Part shown: positions 19,396 through 27,549 of the stretch, in pieces
Layout of the letters: the number at the start of each line of letters is the position of its first letter
Numbering within the stretch: the first letter of the stretch is position 1
Assembly: GCA_015487785.1 (NCBI GenBank)
Contig: WFPC01000015.1
Span: 51,942 to 115,941 of the forward strand
DNA from: Gammaproteobacteria bacterium
GTDB taxonomy: Bacteria > Pseudomonadota > Gammaproteobacteria > S012-40
Direction of reading: 5' to 3'
Length of the DNA: 64,000 nt
Program-made: the position numbers and the translations under genes
Notes under the pieces: generated by a model
The model's database searches: none
The model's input: the letters and a program-made list of their open reading frames with translations, nothing else
Told to the model about the DNA's origin: nothing

Positions 19396-20178
19396 TCATT
19401 TTGGTTCAGGCATGGCGCGTGAGAGTTTGGCGATGAATTTCTCATCGAATTCATATGCACCCGTTTCGCGGGATTTTTTCACCATGCGCCATGTGCGTTC
19501 ATAATTAGCCTGGTCATAGGCGATTATGCCTCCCCATCTATAGGCATCTCCATAGTCTGGGGCGATGCGCAGAGCATCATCTATAAGTTTGTCTGCTGTT
19601 TCATAAAGTGCGCGTGATTTTTCCGCGTCAGTCTTTTTCAGTTTGCTTGCCTGCCAGGCATTAGCTCTTGCAACATCGACATAAAACGGCGGTTTCTCCT
19701 TCGTTTCGTCTGTCATGCTCTTGTCGATTCTGCTCATGGCATCTTCGAAATAGACCAAGGCCTTTTCAGGTTTTCCTTCACCGAGCATGAGGACCCCAAA
19801 GCCCCAATAAGGTTGATAGTAGTCCGGGTCGAGCAGCCATGCCTGGTTGAATCGCATCATGGCAGTTTTTGCGTCTCCGCTGCTCATCTTCATCCATCCT
19901 GCCATGGAAAAACGCCTGGCACCTATTTCTCTGGATCCTTCAGACCTGATAATGGACTCAATAAACTTTTGGTCACTTTCCTTCTGTTTCTTGGTTTTTT
20001 GTATTTGCGGATAATATTCAGCGCCATACATTGGCAATAGATTGAGCGGTTTGTAGTGGGCGCCACTGCTTATCAGTTCTTTTGTTTTTGGAGAGACGCA
20101 CGAGGTCAAGCCGATGATGAGAAAGAGGGAAAGTATGTAAATCCGGCGTCGATGTTTACTGGCTTCTTTATATTTCAT
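19396..20178 (-). CDS. TPR-like repeat lipoprotein, in low-GC islet
   Basis: Start taken at MKYKEASKHRRRIYILSLFLIIGLTSC (lipobox LTSC); the longer track ORF is an upstream extension. TPR-like helical repeats (YYQPYWGFGVLMLGEGKPEKALVYFEDAM..., AYRWGGIIAYDQANYERTW). GC is visibly far below the flanking genes. Confidence 0.6.
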   Translation of the reverse strand: MKYKEASKHRRRIYILSLFLIIGLTSCVSPKTKELISSGAHYKPLNLLPMYGAEYYPQIQKTKKQKESDQKFIESIIRSEGSREIGARRFSMAGWMKMSSGDAKTAMMRFNQAWLLDPDYYQPYWGFGVLMLGEGKPEKALVYFEDAMSRIDKSMTDETKEKPPFYVDVARANAWQASKLKKTDAEKSRALYETADKLIDDALRIAPDYGDAYRWGGIIAYDQANYERTWRMVKKSRETGAYEFDEKFIAKLSRAMPEPK

Positions 20179-20402
20179 TGTGTTGTCTCTCGTTATCGCG
20201 CAAACAAAACTGCCATGGGCTATAGAGAGTGAAGCCGTATCGCCATCCACGAAAGCAGTCTTTATGCTGTCTTTATACAGAATCATAGAGAAACCTGGCA
20301 AAATGTAAATACGAAAATGAATTGCCATGGACCGGTCAAGATTTGACTTGATAGCATGTCGTGCTTGTCGGCCCAGCGCTGGCGGCTTCAGTGTATTCTC
20401 CG

Positions 20403-21500
20403 TTACTCAGGTATTTCGAAAAGCAGACTTTTTACTCCCACCTCACCGCGCAGGCCCGATACATTTACCGTGAGGATATGAAGGCCTGCCGCCAGGCCCG
20501 AGGGGTTCCAGCGCCAGGTCAGTGGTACATAGCCTTGCTCCTGCTCGGAAACGAATTCGTGGTCGATGAAAAAACCGATTTCGTAGAGACTTTGCTGAAG
20601 CTGGGCCTTGTCGTTCGGATCGGCAATATCAACCCGGATGGGGCAGGGGCATGACAGAATGGGTTGGCCGGCGGCATTGAGGGGGTAGTCGCCGGTGAAA
20701 GCCACCGTGATGGCGGGCGAGAGATTGATGTCCTTGGGCAGGTAGTAGTGTTTTTCGATGCGCTTGCCATTGCGTTCCAGCTTGATGGCGGAAGGCGGTG
20801 GTGGTGGCGATTTATCGGCTAGCTGGCTGCGGTAGTCGCGGTAAGTGAGTCTATTGTTGCCATGGGCGATAATGGCATGTTCCGGAAGGCGGTAGGCGCG
20901 CGACATGATACTGAGTTTGCCGGTCTTGCGAATGTCGATGAGGCCATCCTGGTCATAGCCGTTCCAACGCACGATAACGCTGCCCCTGTTCTTTACCTCC
21001 CAGTTGGCCAGGGAGCGCAACATGGGACCGCCCTTGATGCCCGCACGCACCATGAGGCGGGCCGGGCTGGGCAGATTGAACTGAAGGTTTTTGTCGGGTG
21101 TGATGTGCATTTTCAGCTCTTCGATGACTTCACCGCCGGTGTTTCTGCGGTCGTAGGTGAAGCGCTCTCCCGTGCTGGTGGTCAGGATGGCAATTGGCAG
21201 ATAGGCTTCATCCGGCACGACCCGGCCTTGCTCGTCCTTTCCATCCCATTGCATGTGATGAGCTTTATCGCTAGGGGTGACCTCCGAGTGAAGGCTGCGA
21301 ATGAGTTCACCGTCGGGTGTGTAGATGCGTAGCTCGACTCTGCCTGCCTCAGTGGTCTTGAAGGGGATGTCAAACCGCTGGCCGTGGATGGGAGAGAATT
21401 CGTTCTTTTCGTAAGGCAGCAGACGAATAGGCAGGGTTTCCGCCGCCAGGGTGGGGAGTGGGAGCAGGAAAAAGAGCAGAATTGGGGTAAGGGTGAAATG
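20403..21500 (-). CDS. Secreted protein with FlgD-Ig-like beta-sandwich repeats (start codon unresolved)
   Basis: Track ORF begins at M (21254), but the reading frame is open up to the kinase TGA (21540-21542) and encodes a classical signal peptide KASRFFTHFTLTPILLFFLLPLPTLAA-ETLP. Domain pattern RVELRIYTPDGELIRSLHSEV...HMQWDGKDEQGRVVPDEAYLPI is the FlgD-Ig/FlgD-like fold. The 5' end is approximate. Confidence 0.5.
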   Translation of the reverse strand, partial: HFTLTPILLFFLLPLPTLAAETLPIRLLPYEKNEFSPIHGQRFDIPFKTTEAGRVELRIYTPDGELIRSLHSEVTPSDKAHHMQWDGKDEQGRVVPDEAYLPIAILTTSTGERFTYDRRNTGGEVIEELKMHITPDKNLQFNLPSPARLMVRAGIKGGPMLRSLANWEVKNRGSVIVRWNGYDQDGLIDIRKTGKLSIMSRAYRLPEHAIIAHGNNRLTYRDYRSQLADKSPPPPPSAIKLERNGKRIEKHYYLPKDINLSPAITVAFTGDYPLNAAGQPILSCPCPIRVDIADPNDKAQLQQSLYEIGFFIDHEFVSEQEQGYVPLTWRWNPSGLAAGLHILTVNVSGLRGEVGVKSLLFEIPE

Positions 21501-21539
21501 TGTAAAAAATCTCGACGCTTTCTGCCCCGCAGGGGATGC

Positions 21540-23255
21540 TCAGCCCAGCAGGAAAAACAGCAGCACCAGATTGGTGATGAACAAGACGATGGCCAGGCTG
21601 CGCCAGAAGGCGGTGGGATTCCTTTCCAGCAGGGAGGCTTCTTGTTTTTTTACCAGCTCGGGGTTGGGGTGGGTGAGATCTTGCAGGAATTCCGACAACA
21701 CCTTGTAGCGGCGTTCGGGATTCAGGCGCACGGCTTTTTCCAGCGCGGCATCAACCCAGGCGGGAATCTCAGGGTTGATGTGATTGATGGGGCGATAGCG
21801 TACCCGCTTGAGATTGCGCGCCGACAGCGGGCCTCCATAGGGTAGCTTGCCGCACAGCATCTCATAGGTGATGACGCCGATGGAATAGATGTCGGACAGG
21901 TGTGTGCCGGGGTAGCCAAGAAAGTATTCCGGCGCGGAATAGTCCAAGGTGCCCAGCAGGGCGCCGCGTTCGATGGGAGCGGCGATCTCCTGCATGCCGG
22001 CGATCTTGGTGGAACCGAAGTCGATGATCTTGAGGGTGCCGTGCTCGTCGAGCATGATGTTTTCCGGCTTCAGGTCCTGATGCACCATTTCCTGGCGCAA
22101 CAGGGCGCGTACGCCCTTGATGAGTTGCCCGACGATCTCGCGCGCTTCTGCCAGCGGGGGGTTGGGATGGTCGTTCATCCATTGGCGCAGTGACTGTCCC
22201 TCGATGTATTCGGTAAGATAGTAGAGAAAACGTCGTGGACGCGGTGGTTCGATCACTTTGAGCACATGGGGGCTGTTGATGCGTCGTCCGGCCCATTCCT
22301 CGTGCAGGAAACCATCGATGTATTGGGGATCATCCTCGAAGTTCACCGAGGGTGTTTTCATGGCCCATTTCTGCCCGGATGCCGTGTCCAGCACCAGGTA
22401 GACCTGGGTACGCTTGCTGGCATGGATTTCCCGGATCACCTTGTAGCCGTCGATAATCTGGCCGGCCTGCAGCGGTGGCGGGAAGGGCAGCTCGGTAAGC
22501 TGTCGATAGAACTCTTCCTCGTTTTGATTGGGTAGGGATTCTATTTCACATACTTGGCAGGTCACATTGTCGTGGCTGCCATTGGCCAGGGCCTGCTTGA
22601 CGATCTGGCGTGCGGCGCGGTCGGGATTGTCGCGGTACTTCTGTACCAGGGCGATCATATCCTTGGCATGCAGGTATTCATATACCCCGTCGGTGGCGAG
22701 AATGAAAATATCGCCCACCTCCAGCGGCAGGTTGCGATAGTCGATGTCGATGTTGAGATCGGCCCCCATGGCGCGGGCGAGGAAGGCCTTGCTTTCCGAG
22801 GCCCAGGTGGTGTGGTCGCGGGTAAGCCGTTCCAGTTCATTGCCGCGCAGGCGATAGATGCGTGAATCGCCCACGTGGAAGATGTGCGCGGTGGTGGATT
22901 TGAGCACCAGCACACTGAGGGTGGTGAGCATGCCTTGGCCGGTATAGTTGATACGGGCGCTTTCGCCATAGAGCCAGCGATTGAGGGCGCCGAGGATGCG
23001 CTGGCCGGAGGTTTTTACCGTCCAGGACTCCGGAGTACTGTAATAATCCAGCATAAAACCTTTGACGCAGGCCTCGCTGGCCTGGCGGCCGGCAGCGCTG
23101 CTGCTGACGCCGTCCGCCACCATGAGGGTTATGCCCTTGGTGGTGAGCAGAGGTTCTTCCGGAACCTTGATGCCGCAACAATCCTGGTTTTCGGACTTGA
23201 TGCCCTTCTCGCTCAGTTGGCCGGCGCGTATGGCCAGGCTGGAGGTAGTGCCCAT
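21540..23255 (-). CDS. Bifunctional PP2C-family phosphatase / Ser-Thr protein kinase with C-terminal transmembrane anchor
   Basis: N-terminal PP2C motifs (SENQDCCG, MVADGVSS, HVGDSRIY, TRDHT, ATDG, GSHDNVT). Central Hanks kinase (KTPSVNFEDD..., HQDLKPENIML, DFGSTK, APEY). C-terminal TM helix WRSLAIVLFITNLVLLFFLLG. 5 nt downstream of narK. Confidence 0.85.
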   Translation of the reverse strand: MGTTSSLAIRAGQLSEKGIKSENQDCCGIKVPEEPLLTTKGITLMVADGVSSSAAGRQASEACVKGFMLDYYSTPESWTVKTSGQRILGALNRWLYGESARINYTGQGMLTTLSVLVLKSTTAHIFHVGDSRIYRLRGNELERLTRDHTTWASESKAFLARAMGADLNIDIDYRNLPLEVGDIFILATDGVYEYLHAKDMIALVQKYRDNPDRAARQIVKQALANGSHDNVTCQVCEIESLPNQNEEEFYRQLTELPFPPPLQAGQIIDGYKVIREIHASKRTQVYLVLDTASGQKWAMKTPSVNFEDDPQYIDGFLHEEWAGRRINSPHVLKVIEPPRPRRFLYYLTEYIEGQSLRQWMNDHPNPPLAEAREIVGQLIKGVRALLRQEMVHQDLKPENIMLDEHGTLKIIDFGSTKIAGMQEIAAPIERGALLGTLDYSAPEYFLGYPGTHLSDIYSIGVITYEMLCGKLPYGGPLSARNLKRVRYRPINHINPEIPAWVDAALEKAVRLNPERRYKVLSEFLQDLTHPNPELVKKQEASLLERNPTAFWRSLAIVLFITNLVLLFFLLG

Positions 23256-23259
23256 GGGT

Positions 23260-24729
23260 TCAGTGTACGTCGATCATTTGCACGGTGCCATCGGGCAGGG
23301 TTTCCACCATCGCGCCGCGAGGCTCTTCCATGAAGAAATACACCAGCACCAGGGTCAGCACGGCAGCGCCGGCAATGGTCAGGAAGAAGGCCATCGGTGA
23401 TACGAAGGACAACACGGTGAGAAAGACCACTGCGCCCACATTGCCATAGGCGCCGGTCATGCCGGCAATCTGGCCGGTGAGACGACGTTTGATCAGTGGC
23501 ACCATGGCAAACACCGCGCCTTCGCCGGCCTGTACGAAAAAGGAACACAGCATGGTCACGGCCACGGCCAGGAAAAGAGGCCATTGGGCGTCTATCTGGC
23601 TCATGAGAACATAGCCCAGGCTCAGGCAGGCGAGCAGGATCAGCATGGTCTTTCGTCGACCGAATTTGTCGCTGAACAAACCGCCGCTGGGGCGTGAGAC
23701 CAGGTTCATGAAGGCATAGCCAGAGGCCAGCATGCCGGCCATCACAGCCGAGAGTTGGAAAGTGTCCTGGAAGAACAGGGGCAGCATGGACACCACCGCC
23801 AGCTCGGAGCCGAAGGTGACGAAATAGGCCAGGTTGAGAATAGCTACCTGCTTGAAGGAATAACGCTCGATTTCCGGCACGGGTTTCTCGAACACGTGCT
23901 TGTTGATGCGGTGTATGTGGAACAGCTGATAGAGAAAGATGAGTGCCAGGCTGCCATAGAGAGTGATGACCACGGCCTCTCCGAGCATCTCCAGGTTGCC
24001 GGGGCCCAGCTTCCAGGTGAGGATGGCCAGGGCACCGTACAGGGGCAGGTTCATGATGACGTAGAGAATGAAATCTCCCTTGCTGGTGACTTCCATGGCG
24101 CCGGTCTTCTTGGGTTTGAAATAGGTAGAGCCCTTGGGGGTGTTGCGGGCGGAAAAATAGAACACGAAGGAATATACCAGGGCGATGGCTCCCGTGGTGG
24201 CGATGGCGTAGCGCCAGCCGTTTTCGCCGCCGTAGAGCATGGCCAGGGTGGGCAGGGTCAGGGCCGCAGCGGCGGAGCCGAAATTGCCCCAGCCGCCATA
24301 GATACCCTCGGCCAGGCCCACCTCCCTGGCCGGAAACCACTCGGCAATCAGACGGATACCCACCACGAAACCAGCACCCACGAAGCCCAGCAGGAAGCGC
24401 AACAGGGCAAGTTGTTCATAGTCGTCGGCAAGGGCGAAGCCAAAACAGATCACGCTGGAAATGGAGAGCAGGGCGGCAAACATGATACGCGGACCCAGCT
24501 TGTCCACCAGCATGCCGACGATGATGCGCGCGGGGATGGTGAGAGCGACATTGAGAATGAGCAAGGCCTTGACCTCTTGATCGGTTAGGCCGAAGGTCTC
24601 GCGAATGGCTCCCAGCAGGGGAGCATGGTTGAACCACACGAAAAAACAGAGGAAGAAGGCCAGCCAAGACAAGTGCAGAATCCTGGTCTTGCCGGAAAAG
24701 GAAAGCAGCTTGAGTTTTGCGTCGGTCAT
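23260..24729 (-). CDS. narK: Nitrate/nitrite transporter, MFS NNP family (NarK/NasA-type)
   Basis: 489 aa, 12-TM MFS. Nitrate signature-like GGWGNFG and GAYGNVGA motifs. Confidence 0.9.
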
Positions 24730-24762
24730 CGGGACGACTCCAGGTAAAACTTTTCCAGCTCC

Positions 24763-24779
24763 TAGCTAAAATCGTGCCA
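24763..24779 (-). promoter_or_regulatory. Putative sigma54 (-24/-12) promoter for narK-kinase operon
   Basis: Minus-strand TTGGCACGATTTTAGCT versus TGGCACG-N4-TTGCW, with correct GG-N10-GC spacing. About 35-50 nt upstream of the narK start. Confidence 0.5.
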
Positions 24780-24931
24780 ATACATTAATTGTTTGTTTTT
24801 TAAAGTCTAATTTATCTACAGGGTGCATTTTTCAAATTGCCCGTGCCTCAAAAACGGGCCTTGTGGTCTCGCTTTTTCCGTGATGCACCAAAAAAGAGCC
24901 GGGAATGTTTGCGTCGGTATTCTTGATTCAT

Positions 24932-24961
24932 CTGGTGCGAGTCCCGGTTTGTACGCACCAG
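24932..24961. promoter_or_regulatory. Perfect 8-bp-arm inverted repeat between the divergent sigma54 promoters (candidate enhancer/regulator site)
   Basis: ctggtgcg-agtcccggtttgta-cgcaccag. GGTGC/GCACC half-sites recall NtrC-type sites. A further GCACC lies at about 24885. Confidence 0.35.
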
Positions 24962-25055
24962 AATAGAGCAAGCGGCGGCCAAAGGACGTCGCCAAAACGA
25001 GATCGATGCCGGATGAAATGAGATATTTCTTTTACAGTCAATATGATATGCCAAT

Positions 25056-25071
25056 TGGTCCAAATGTTGCT
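25056..25071 (+). promoter_or_regulatory. Putative sigma54 (-24/-12) promoter for nirBD-nasC operon
   Basis: TGGTCCAAATGTTGCT versus TGGCAC-N5-TTGCW with GG-N10-GC spacing. About 40 nt upstream of the nirB ATG. Confidence 0.5.
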
Positions 25072-25110
25072 TGATGGACTGGCTTTAAGACTTAGGACCC
25101 GGAGTAGGCA

Positions 25111-27549
25111 ATGCGAGAGAAACTAGTCCTGATCGGAAATGGTATGGCCGGGGTGCGCACCATCGAAGAACTGTTGAAGATAGCGCCCGAGAAGTACGAC
25201 ATCACCATTTTTGGCGCTGAACCCTATGGTAACTACAACCGCATCCTGTTGTCGCCGGTGCTGGCCGGTGAAAAGACCATAGAAGAAATCATGCTCAATG
25301 ACGAGCAGTGGTATCGCGACAACGGTATTCGCCTGCACAAGGGCAAGAAGGTGATCAAGATCGATCGCCGCCAGCGCAAGGTGATCGCCGAGGACGGCAC
25401 CGAGGAATCCTATGATCGCCTGTTGCTGGCCACCGGCTCCAACCCGTTCATTATCCCCGTGCCAGGCAACGACCTGGAGGGCGTGATCACCTTCCGTGAC
25501 ATCCATGATGTGGACCGCATGTTGGAGGCCACAAGGAAACACAAACACGCGGTGGTCATCGGCGGTGGCCTGTTGGGGCTGGAAGCGGCCAATGGGCTGA
25601 TGCAGCACGGCATGCATGTCACCGTGGTGCATATCACCGACACCTTGATGGAGCGCCAGTTGGACAAGGAGGCCGGTGCTCTGCTGCAGAAATCCCTGGA
25701 AGAACGCGGCATGAATTTTCTCATGTCCCATGTCACCGAGGCAATTCTCGGGGAGGAGCGTGTCAAGGGCGTGCGCTTCGCCAACGGCCTGGAGATTGCC
25801 GCCGACATCGTGGTAATGGCGGTGGGCATTCGGCCCAATATGGAACTGGCTCTCAATGCCGGCATCTATTGCGAGCGTGGCGTGGTGGTCAACGACACCA
25901 TGCAGACCTATGATCCGCGCATCTACGCCGTTGGTGAATGCGTGCAACATCGCGGGGTCACCTATGGACTGGTGGCGCCTCTGTTCGAACAAGCCAAGGT
26001 GGCGGCCAATCATCTGGCCGAATACGGCATTGGCCGTTACGAGGGCTCGGTAACGTCCACCAAGCTTAAGGTGACCGGTATCGACCTGTTCTCCGCCGGC
26101 GATTTCATCGGTGACGAGACCACCGAAGAAATCGTGATGAAGGATGCCGCCCGCGGTGTCTACAAGAAAGTGGTGCTCAAGGACAATCGCGTGGTCGGCG
26201 CGGTGATGTATGGCGATACCGTGGATGGTGCCTGGTATTTCCAATTGTTGCGTGACAAGACCGATGTCAGCGATATCCGCGACCATCTGATGTTGGGGCA
26301 GGCCCACCTGGGTGACGCGGGCCATGGCGGGCAGAATGCCGCCGCGGCCATGAGTGACGACATGGAGGTTTGTGGCTGTAACGGAGTTTGCAAGGGCGAT
26401 ATCGTCAAGGCCATTACCGAAAAGAAACTGTTTACCCTGGACGATGTGCGCGCACACACCAAGGCATCGGCCTCGTGTGGTTCCTGTACTGGTCTGGTGG
26501 AGCAGATTCTGGCTTCCACCCTGGGCGGGGATTACTCCGCCGCTCCCCATGCCAAGCCCCTGTGCAAATGTACCGACTACACCCATGATGAGGTGCGCGC
26601 CGCCATCAAGGAGCAAAAACTCACCTCCATCCGTGCGGTGCAGAAATTCCTCGAATGGAAAACCCCCGACGGTTGTCATGTCTGCCGCCCGGCGCTCAAT
26701 TACTATGTGATCGCCGCCTGGCCGGCGGAGGCCAAGGACGACCCACAGTCCCGCTTTATCAACGAGCGCGCGCATGCCAACATCCAGAAAGATGGCACTT
26801 ACTCGGTGGTGCCACGTATGTGGGGAGGGCTCACTTCACCCAAGGAATTGCGCGCCATCGCCGATGTGGTGGAGAAGTTCAATATTCCCACGGTGAAAGT
26901 CACCGGTGGCCAGCGCATCGATCTTCTGGGTGTACGCAAGGAAGACTTGCCAGCGGTCTGGAAAGACCTCAACGATGCAGGCATGGTTTCCGGTCACGCC
27001 TATGGCAAGTCCTTGCGCACGGTAAAGACGTGTGTGGGTCAGGAATGGTGCCGTTTTGGAACCCAGTTCTCCATGTCCATGGGGGTGAAGCTGGAGCAGA
27101 TCACCTGGGGTTCATGGATGCCGCACAAGTTCAAGATGGCGGTATCCGGTTGTCCACGCAACTGTGCTGAGGCGACCATCAAGGACTTTGGTGTGGTGGC
27201 GGTGGAATCCGGCTGGGAACTGCATGTGGGTGGCAATGGCGGCGTGAAGGTGCGCGCCACCGACCTGTTGTGCAAGGTGGCTACCGAGGAAGAGGTGATC
27301 GATCACTGCCTGGCATTCATTCAGCTCTATCGCGAAGAGGCTCATTATCTGGAACGCACCGCGCCCTGGATCGAGCGCGTGGGCCTGAGCTATGTCAAGC
27401 AGCAAATCGTGGAAAATGAAGAGCGCCGCAAGCAATTGCGCGATGCCTTCCTCGAGTCGCAGAAATACATGCAGAAGGATCCCTGGAAGGAGCGCGCCAG
27501 TGAGGGCGTGGAGAAACATGAGTTCGTACCAATCAAGCAGGTGAGTTGA
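25111..27549 (+). CDS. nirB: NAD(P)H-dependent nitrite reductase large subunit
   Basis: 812 aa. N-terminal FAD/NAD Rossmann (LVLIGNGMAG, VVIGGGLLGLE), BFD-like 2Fe-2S region (CGCNGVC...CGSC), C-terminal siroheme/4Fe-4S sulfite-reductase-like domain. Confidence 0.95.
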   Translation: MREKLVLIGNGMAGVRTIEELLKIAPEKYDITIFGAEPYGNYNRILLSPVLAGEKTIEEIMLNDEQWYRDNGIRLHKGKKVIKIDRRQRKVIAEDGTEESYDRLLLATGSNPFIIPVPGNDLEGVITFRDIHDVDRMLEATRKHKHAVVIGGGLLGLEAANGLMQHGMHVTVVHITDTLMERQLDKEAGALLQKSLEERGMNFLMSHVTEAILGEERVKGVRFANGLEIAADIVVMAVGIRPNMELALNAGIYCERGVVVNDTMQTYDPRIYAVGECVQHRGVTYGLVAPLFEQAKVAANHLAEYGIGRYEGSVTSTKLKVTGIDLFSAGDFIGDETTEEIVMKDAARGVYKKVVLKDNRVVGAVMYGDTVDGAWYFQLLRDKTDVSDIRDHLMLGQAHLGDAGHGGQNAAAAMSDDMEVCGCNGVCKGDIVKAITEKKLFTLDDVRAHTKASASCGSCTGLVEQILASTLGGDYSAAPHAKPLCKCTDYTHDEVRAAIKEQKLTSIRAVQKFLEWKTPDGCHVCRPALNYYVIAAWPAEAKDDPQSRFINERAHANIQKDGTYSVVPRMWGGLTSPKELRAIADVVEKFNIPTVKVTGGQRIDLLGVRKEDLPAVWKDLNDAGMVSGHAYGKSLRTVKTCVGQEWCRFGTQFSMSMGVKLEQITWGSWMPHKFKMAVSGCPRNCAEATIKDFGVVAVESGWELHVGGNGGVKVRATDLLCKVATEEEVIDHCLAFIQLYREEAHYLERTAPWIERVGLSYVKQQIVENEERRKQLRDAFLESQKYMQKDPWKERASEGVEKHEFVPIKQVS

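Follow-up and report, generated by a model that had tools for sequence, protein, structure and literature searches.

The window analyzed here is a 64,000-nucleotide (nt) stretch of contig WFPC01000015.1 from a Gammaproteobacteria bacterium (assembly GCA_015487785.1). It carries on its minus strand an open reading frame (ORF) for an immunoglobulin-like (Ig-like) protein that has no canonical start codon and that is in frame with the stop codon of a protein phosphatase/kinase gene lying immediately upstream. This ORF, at positions 20403–21482, is very probably a very young 5′-truncated pseudogene. It corresponds to codon 7 through the stop codon of a gene for a secreted protein of ~365 amino acids (aa), with tandem β-sandwich domains, that belonged to family ‘D’ with FlgD_ig. 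The start and 5′ end are missing from a defined structural breakpoint onward (21482..21483, minus strand), where the 3′ flank of the kinase gene abuts codon 7 of the Ig-like gene and ~1 nt of microhomology is seen. The loss is evident in comparison with two sister-species loci (L001 and L052), three contigs with an intact allele (L050, L051 and L053) and one contig that shares only the kinase side (L049).

A preliminary description of this DNA, made from the letters alone, had reported that the frame extends back to the kinase TGA without a canonical start ahead of position 21254. A codon-by-codon listing confirmed this. Read on the minus strand, the frame runs open from the kinase stop (TGA, 21542–21540) to its own stop at 20405–20403, or 378 codons stop to stop, and none of the 95 in-frame codons between 21539 and 21255 is an ATG, GTG or TTG. 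The earliest near-cognate codons ahead of the first ATG are ATT at 21482 and CTG at 21479, both of which open the hydrophobic core of the encoded signal peptide. Gene callers begin a 283-aa product (P0002) at the first ATG (21252–21254, minus strand), which has no Shine-Dalgarno sequence and lies in a β strand of domain 1. The Pfam match to FlgD_ig covers residues 62–113 of the stop-to-stop frame (21201–21356, minus strand) and straddles Met96, the residue encoded by this ATG. An AlphaFold model based on a 23-sequence alignment (mean predicted local distance difference test score (pLDDT) 88.5, predicted template modeling score (pTM) 0.82) places Met96 within strand 94–98 of the first β-sandwich domain. 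Because Met96 falls inside both the FlgD_ig match and this modeled strand, P0002 is an artificial truncation, produced when the first internal ATG was picked in a truncated gene. The earlier view that ATG 21254 lies mid-domain and is not a natural start is upheld by the same data.

A search of a protein collection returned about 120 homologues (P0001–P0120), nearly all of them 350–400 aa and roughly 360 aa in length. All N-termini inspected (12 listed, 22 aligned) consist of Met-Lys/Arg followed by a hydrophobic core, and begin ~6 residues before the isoleucine encoded at window position 21482. For every orthologue, homology to the window begins exactly at 21482. From that point on, the remnant shows full-length homology to family ‘D’ (~360 aa, with the C-terminal motifs conserved), retains all 40 family-invariant alignment columns, and is 88% identical in amino acid sequence to P0001, its closest species-level relative (E = 3e-214). 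It has neither an ATG of its own nor a complete Sec signal peptide, as codons 1–6 are replaced by kinase flank.

The apparent signal peptide, described earlier as textbook, is only partly ancestral. The hydrophobic core and cleavage region ILLFFLLPLPTLAA (21441–21482, minus strand), with predicted cleavage before the glutamate encoded at 21440, align with MKLLCI-ILLFFLLPLPTLAA and the following glutamate of P0242, a close homologue discussed below, and with MKRLCV-ILLVLLLPAITMA of P0001. The charged part, KASRFFTHFTLTP, is instead the kinase 3′ flank translated in frame. This flank comprises 57 nt (21483–21539, minus strand) whose in-frame translation, ASPAGQKASRFFTHFTLTP, forms a false n-region; it contains no start codon and is not ancestral Ig-like coding sequence. 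Because the non-homologous open stretch back to the TGA is only 19 codons long, with an accidental chance of roughly 0.4–0.5 (an estimate from ~55% G+C), continuity with the kinase TGA is unremarkable. The proposal that the frame represents a separate secreted protein is borne out with respect to its origin.

The same boundary appears in nucleotide comparisons with sister species. In the three sister-species loci of P0001 (L001, L002 and L052), the Ig-like gene and a PD40 β-propeller gene are linked by an ATGA stop/start overlap and are convergent with dapB-dnaJ-dnaK. Nucleotide homology of the window to L001 and L052 (84%) starts at 21482, corresponding to codon 7 of the orthologue, ends at 20413, and resumes in dapB. 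Because the sister loci also place PD40 and the Ig-like gene beside dapB-dnaJ-dnaK, the window copy occupies the ancestral position, with only its 5′ side replaced. We retrieved 33 related genomic loci for context, and in all of the ~30 with enough upstream flank a PD40 gene lies directly upstream of the Ig-like gene, the one exception being a degraded copy (L034). The window copy has no PD40 gene directly upstream, and neither a PD40 gene nor any other operon partner was found in the whole 64-kb window.

An intact allele exists in co-occurring strains. P0242, a 365-aa protein that clusters with the window protein at 90% identity, reads MKLLCI-ILLFFLLPLPTLAAETLP... and equals the window protein except for one residue and the extra MKLLCI. 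The two contigs encoding it, L050 (GCA_026999545.1) and L051 (ERZ23495177), share with the window a segment of 1,214 bp (20269–21482, minus strand) with 3 mismatches in 1,214 nt (99.75% identity), and differ from it in the flanks on both sides. The first 520 bp of this segment, from 21482 to ~20962, are also found in a third contig, L053 (ERZ23495238), at a lower overall identity that results largely from a run of N in the scaffold. In all three contigs, which come from co-occurring strains, the PD40 gene is followed by ...CAACC ATG AAA CTT CTT TGT ATC and, directly after it, the ATT CTG CTC with which the window remnant begins. The check named in the preliminary description, a comparison of orthologues for a canonical start, thus yields an ATG together with codons 1–6, the outcome which that description named as refuting a non-canonical start. 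Of that description’s suggestion of a start-codon mutation or sequencing error, the loss of the start stands, but it came about through a breakpoint and not through a point mutation or an error.

The kinase side of the junction is matched by L049 (GCA_026997855.1), which carries narK, the kinase gene and the same 57 nt, and departs from the window at the same base, continuing in unrelated DNA. Because L049 carries the kinase gene with these 57 nt before diverging, the segment 21483–21539 belongs to the kinase side. It shows no similarity to the sequence upstream of the ATG in L001, L050 or L052. A search for the source of this linker in the 3′ flanks of kinase orthologues (L040 and L042) and in L001 gave chance-level scores, and had little power given that the nearest kinase orthologue is 68% identical. 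Past the kinase flank, L049 continues for 131 nt in unrelated low-G+C sequence (L049:2923-3053), and in L050 a 94-nt unit is tandemly repeated after window position 20269 (L050:2304-2500). L051 ends exactly at 20269, and a further contig, L047, ends 54 nt beyond the breakpoint. The alternative flanks in L049 and L050 may be mobile-element ends or assembly loops.

These comparisons suggest the following history. In the ancestral arrangement, which is directly observed, the Ig-like gene is fourth in an operon, after genes for a ChrB_C/rhodanese protein, a membrane protein and the PD40 protein. In L001, L050 and L052 the PD40 stop codon overlaps the Ig-like gene start (ATGA), and the orthologous ATG lacks its own Shine-Dalgarno sequence; ancestral translation was thus coupled to PD40 through the overlap. 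Illegitimate recombination would have removed the upstream genes and codons 1–6. The simplest such event would be a single deletion with one endpoint 57 nt past the kinase stop and the other between codons 6 and 7, which is where the observed junction lies. By accident, the kinase flank supplies a lysine and an arginine ahead of the surviving core and keeps the frame open for 19 codons. Lacking a start codon, a ribosome-binding site and partner genes, the remnant most likely just lengthens the narK-kinase transcript at its 3′ end and is not translated.

The locus is polymorphic: co-occurring strains keep the intact arrangement, and one start-less strain carries a nonsense codon. This strain, L043 (GCA_015490705.1), has a TGG>TGA change (G>A) at 20514 (minus strand) in the codon of a family-invariant tryptophan, which gives rise to a 246-aa call (P0241). 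The nonsense codon is present in one of seven start-less assemblies, and decay has begun in at least one strain. Changes private to the start-less allele are a synonymous one at 20517 and the nonsense change at 20514 in L043. Two further changes, at 21459 and 21231, are synonymous and common to the intact allele, and therefore predate or cross the truncation. Among the first four assemblies, all three strain single-nucleotide polymorphisms (SNPs) were synonymous, and we considered them as evidence of purifying selection; we rejected this use of them, as two occur in the intact allele and L043 adds a nonsense change. At positions 21459/21231, at least three SNP haplotypes (A/G, G/A and G/G) carry the start-less allele and the intact allele is G/A, a pattern that suggests either recombination among strains after the truncation or old polymorphism.

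Several observations weigh against a pseudogene. In the window, the ORF is intact over 360 codons and keeps every family-invariant residue. The ratio of nonsynonymous to synonymous substitution rates (dN/dS) relative to the sister species is 0.24 over the N-terminal 76 codons and 0.08 over the rest, as compared to 0.07 for dapB. Outgroup-polarized amino acid changes on the window lineage are not in excess in the N-terminal part (8 vs 10), and number 12 vs 4 in the rest. Moreover, no single contig covering the deleted interval was recovered, the contigs with the intact allele are short, at 1.7–2.5 kb, and past 20269 L050 and L051 likewise depart from the window sequence. The intact ORF, the dN/dS values and the polarized counts fit a very recent loss as well as they fit continued function, because the truncation is too recent for rate tests to be informative. 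A search with the PD40 protein for longer contigs from intact strains gave only one 1.7-kb contig, and neither of two exact-pattern scans of JGI metagenomes, one with the L049 tail and one with the intact junction, gave a match.

Because the intact contigs are short and L050 and L051 diverge past 20269, the same genome could also hold a second copy that is intact. The window copy would then be a partial duplicate, with 21482–20269 as a near-identical repeat of an L050-type operon located elsewhere; the locus would still be start-less and non-functional, and the organism would keep the function. The short intact contigs resemble contigs broken at repeat boundaries, with L051 ending at 20269 and L047 ending 54 nt inside the segment, and both flanks of the segment in L050 are unlike those in the window. 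However, long contigs (191, 109 and 50 kb) traverse the segment, which is hard to reconcile with a 99.9%-identical copy at equal coverage. The window copy also sits at the ancestral position by dapB, as in L001 and L052, and the intact and truncated contigs recovered come from different samples. We therefore regard a partial duplication as unlikely. That the junction is an artefact of sequencing, assembly or binning, such as a chimeric join or a lost base, is extremely improbable, even though all of the data are metagenome assemblies and contig ends cluster at the breakpoint. The identical start-less junction occurs in seven assemblies (GCA_015492215.1, GCA_027075455.1, GCA_015490705.1, GCA_027053895.1, ERZ23495399, ERZ23495063 and the Logan assembly of SRR10312489) from at least two projects and several assemblers. 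These include metagenome-assembled genomes (MAGs) from NCBI in two accession series as well as ENA and Logan assemblies, and they carry different linked SNP haplotypes. In addition, the ~1 nt of microhomology at the join rules out a k-mer-based chimera. Because seven assemblies carry the identical junction, it is no sequencing or assembly error.

The other alternatives assume that the start-less frame is still translated. Shine-Dalgarno pairing is absent at ATT 21482 (ΔG +2.9), CTG 21479 (ΔG +2.6) and ATG 21254 (ΔG −0.2); in six flanking genes, the corresponding values are −5.9 to −6.6 for dnaK, dapB, narK and nirB, −3.8 for dnaJ and −0.6 for the kinase gene. Scans for terminators, promoters and RNA structure around the junction found nothing significant (fold z = −0.10), an Rfam search at the junction returned no match, and no structure resembling a selenocysteine insertion sequence (SECIS) follows the kinase TGA. 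Because no terminator is predicted between the kinase gene and the ORF, the remnant is probably co-transcribed, carried on the narK-kinase transcript. This co-transcription, the intact ORF with its invariant residues, and the position of ATT and CTG as the earliest near-cognate codons at the start of the hydrophobic core would all suit continued production of a separate secreted protein from ATT 21482 or CTG 21479, possibly by re-initiation after the kinase TGA. Yet these codons have no Shine-Dalgarno pairing and lie 57–60 nt past the kinase stop, and a signal peptide begun there would be without a charged n-region. In orthologues the start is an ATG, so a non-ATG start is not a conserved feature, and even the contig with 3 differences in 1,214 nt starts at ATG; furthermore, the operon partners are gone and one strain has a nonsense allele. 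We consider such expression very unlikely, and the rare-codon initiation (CTG or ATT) raised in the preliminary description finds no backing here. The AUU start codon of E. coli infC offers a partial parallel, as ATT likewise stands where translation would have to begin at this locus. In infC the AUU is conserved and has a ribosome-binding site ahead of it, unlike the window frame, which has no Shine-Dalgarno sequence, whose orthologues begin with ATG, and in which ATT is the ancestral codon 7 (Ile).

Programmed read-through or recoding of the kinase TGA to give a kinase-Ig fusion draws on the contiguity of the two frames. This contiguity was made by the rearrangement, however, and the intact allele has the PD40 gene in that place. 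The 120 best-scoring kinase homologues are 564–582 aa long, none exceeding 582 aa, and the 25 kinase C-termini inspected end right after the membrane anchor, 0–6 residues past this C-terminal segment. These homologues show no conserved extension, and neither a significant RNA structure (z = −0.10) nor an Rfam match points to an element for stop read-through or selenocysteine recoding; the two adjacent hydrophobic segments of a fusion would also make for unfavorable topology. We take read-through to be so improbable as to be negligible. The earlier judgment that a kinase-Ig fusion is unlikely agrees with the homologue lengths, which offer no precedent for one, and the earlier idea of read-through or re-initiation coupled to the kinase is not supported. 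That the frame is translated at a useful level at all, whether by re-initiation at ATT 21482 or CTG 21479 or by occasional read-through, has in our estimate a very slim chance of being correct; were it so, a secreted Ig-like protein would through a recent deletion have come to be expressed together with a nitrate-assimilation kinase.

We thus favor a young 5′-truncated pseudogene, and the generation of a start-less ORF by 5′ truncation is a well-known phenomenon. The locus shares with 5′-truncated unitary pseudogenes as a general class the loss of the start and the upstream partner, a sharp breakpoint, polymorphism among strains and a nonsense allele. It differs from that class in its very young age: most strains still have a fully open frame, and relaxed selection is not yet measurable. 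For annotation, the 283-aa call P0002 in public MAGs is artefactual, and the locus should be flagged as a pseudogene. In terms of method, a missing start codon was resolved through an intact allele in co-occurring strains. The case also illustrates that an in-frame upstream stop codon combined with a plausible signal peptide can arise accidentally at a deletion junction, and it implies no new translation biology.

By sequence, the remnant and its intact relatives belong to an uncharacterized family annotated as ‘FlgD immunoglobulin-like domain containing protein’, with examples in Methylomonas methanica, Saccharospirillum salsuginis and Microbulbifer sp. Like these proteins, with which it shares 36–88% identity across the mature protein, the window copy has FlgD_ig in the first domain, a predicted tandem β-sandwich array, and the conserved C-terminal motifs SLYEI.FF and FVSEQEQGY. 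Unlike them, it lacks a start, the first six codons, the PD40 gene and the rest of the operon. We rejected an assignment to the flagellar hook-capping protein FlgD: only the Ig-like domain matches, NCBIfam scores of 17–21 bits compare with cutoffs of 230–383, and there are no flagellar neighbors. A Foldseek search of the PDB with the AlphaFold model returned only generic tandem Ig-like or macroglobulin-like arrays (TM ~0.2), which give no functional clue. A second degraded family copy is found in Methylococcaceae bacterium UBA2778 (L034:5400-7000), where the gene has lost its N-terminal ~76 residues, the PD40 gene is absent, and a frameshift lies near the C-terminus.

As a side result, the comparisons bring to light a conserved envelope operon that is apparently unstudied; a full-text literature search on it found nothing relevant. 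Its usual order is a ChrB_C/rhodanese protein, a membrane protein, the PD40 protein, the Ig-like protein, often an ~865-aa PKD/FlgD_ig protein, and a small protein. The membrane protein is ~235 aa long with a faint Ferric_reduct match, the ~865-aa protein has PKD, DUF11 and FlgD_ig domains, and a ~140-aa protein is secreted. The operon is found in many Gammaproteobacteria and in some other MAGs, with examples at L009:3415-10162 and L052:1-9098 and in L011, L014, L018, L021, L022, L026 and L030.

The upstream gene (21540–23255, minus strand) encodes a bifunctional protein, PP2C phosphatase and Ser/Thr kinase in one (Pfam PP2C_2, PP2C and Pkinase), that carries a membrane anchor at its C-terminus. 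Its homologues are likewise tail-anchored through a conserved C-terminal membrane segment. It lies 4 nt downstream of narK and is divergent from nirB (window 21540–25111), which places it in a nitrate-assimilation context. The domain content, anchor and narK/nirB context are those of the proteins that NCBI names ‘bifunctional protein-serine/threonine kinase/phosphatase’ in nitrate-assimilation clusters, of which Pseudomonas aeruginosa PA1782 is one. The kinase has no functional link to the Ig-like gene, and its downstream neighbors elsewhere vary, including for example Rrf2 and ABC transporter genes. Its tail in the window, which stops right after ...FFLLG, is the shortest among the 25 C-termini inspected, and the rearrangement could have clipped a few kinase codons.

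Downstream of the remnant lies a gene for a TPR lipoprotein (19396–20178, minus strand) in a low-G+C island (0.45–0.48, vs 0.58–0.60). This island is absent between the Ig-like gene and dapB in sister species, and represents a second local rearrangement. The called starts of the TPR gene at 20328 and 20286 are probably wrong, as the ATG at 20178 gives a lipoprotein signal, MKYKEASKHRRRIYILSLFLIIGLTSC.

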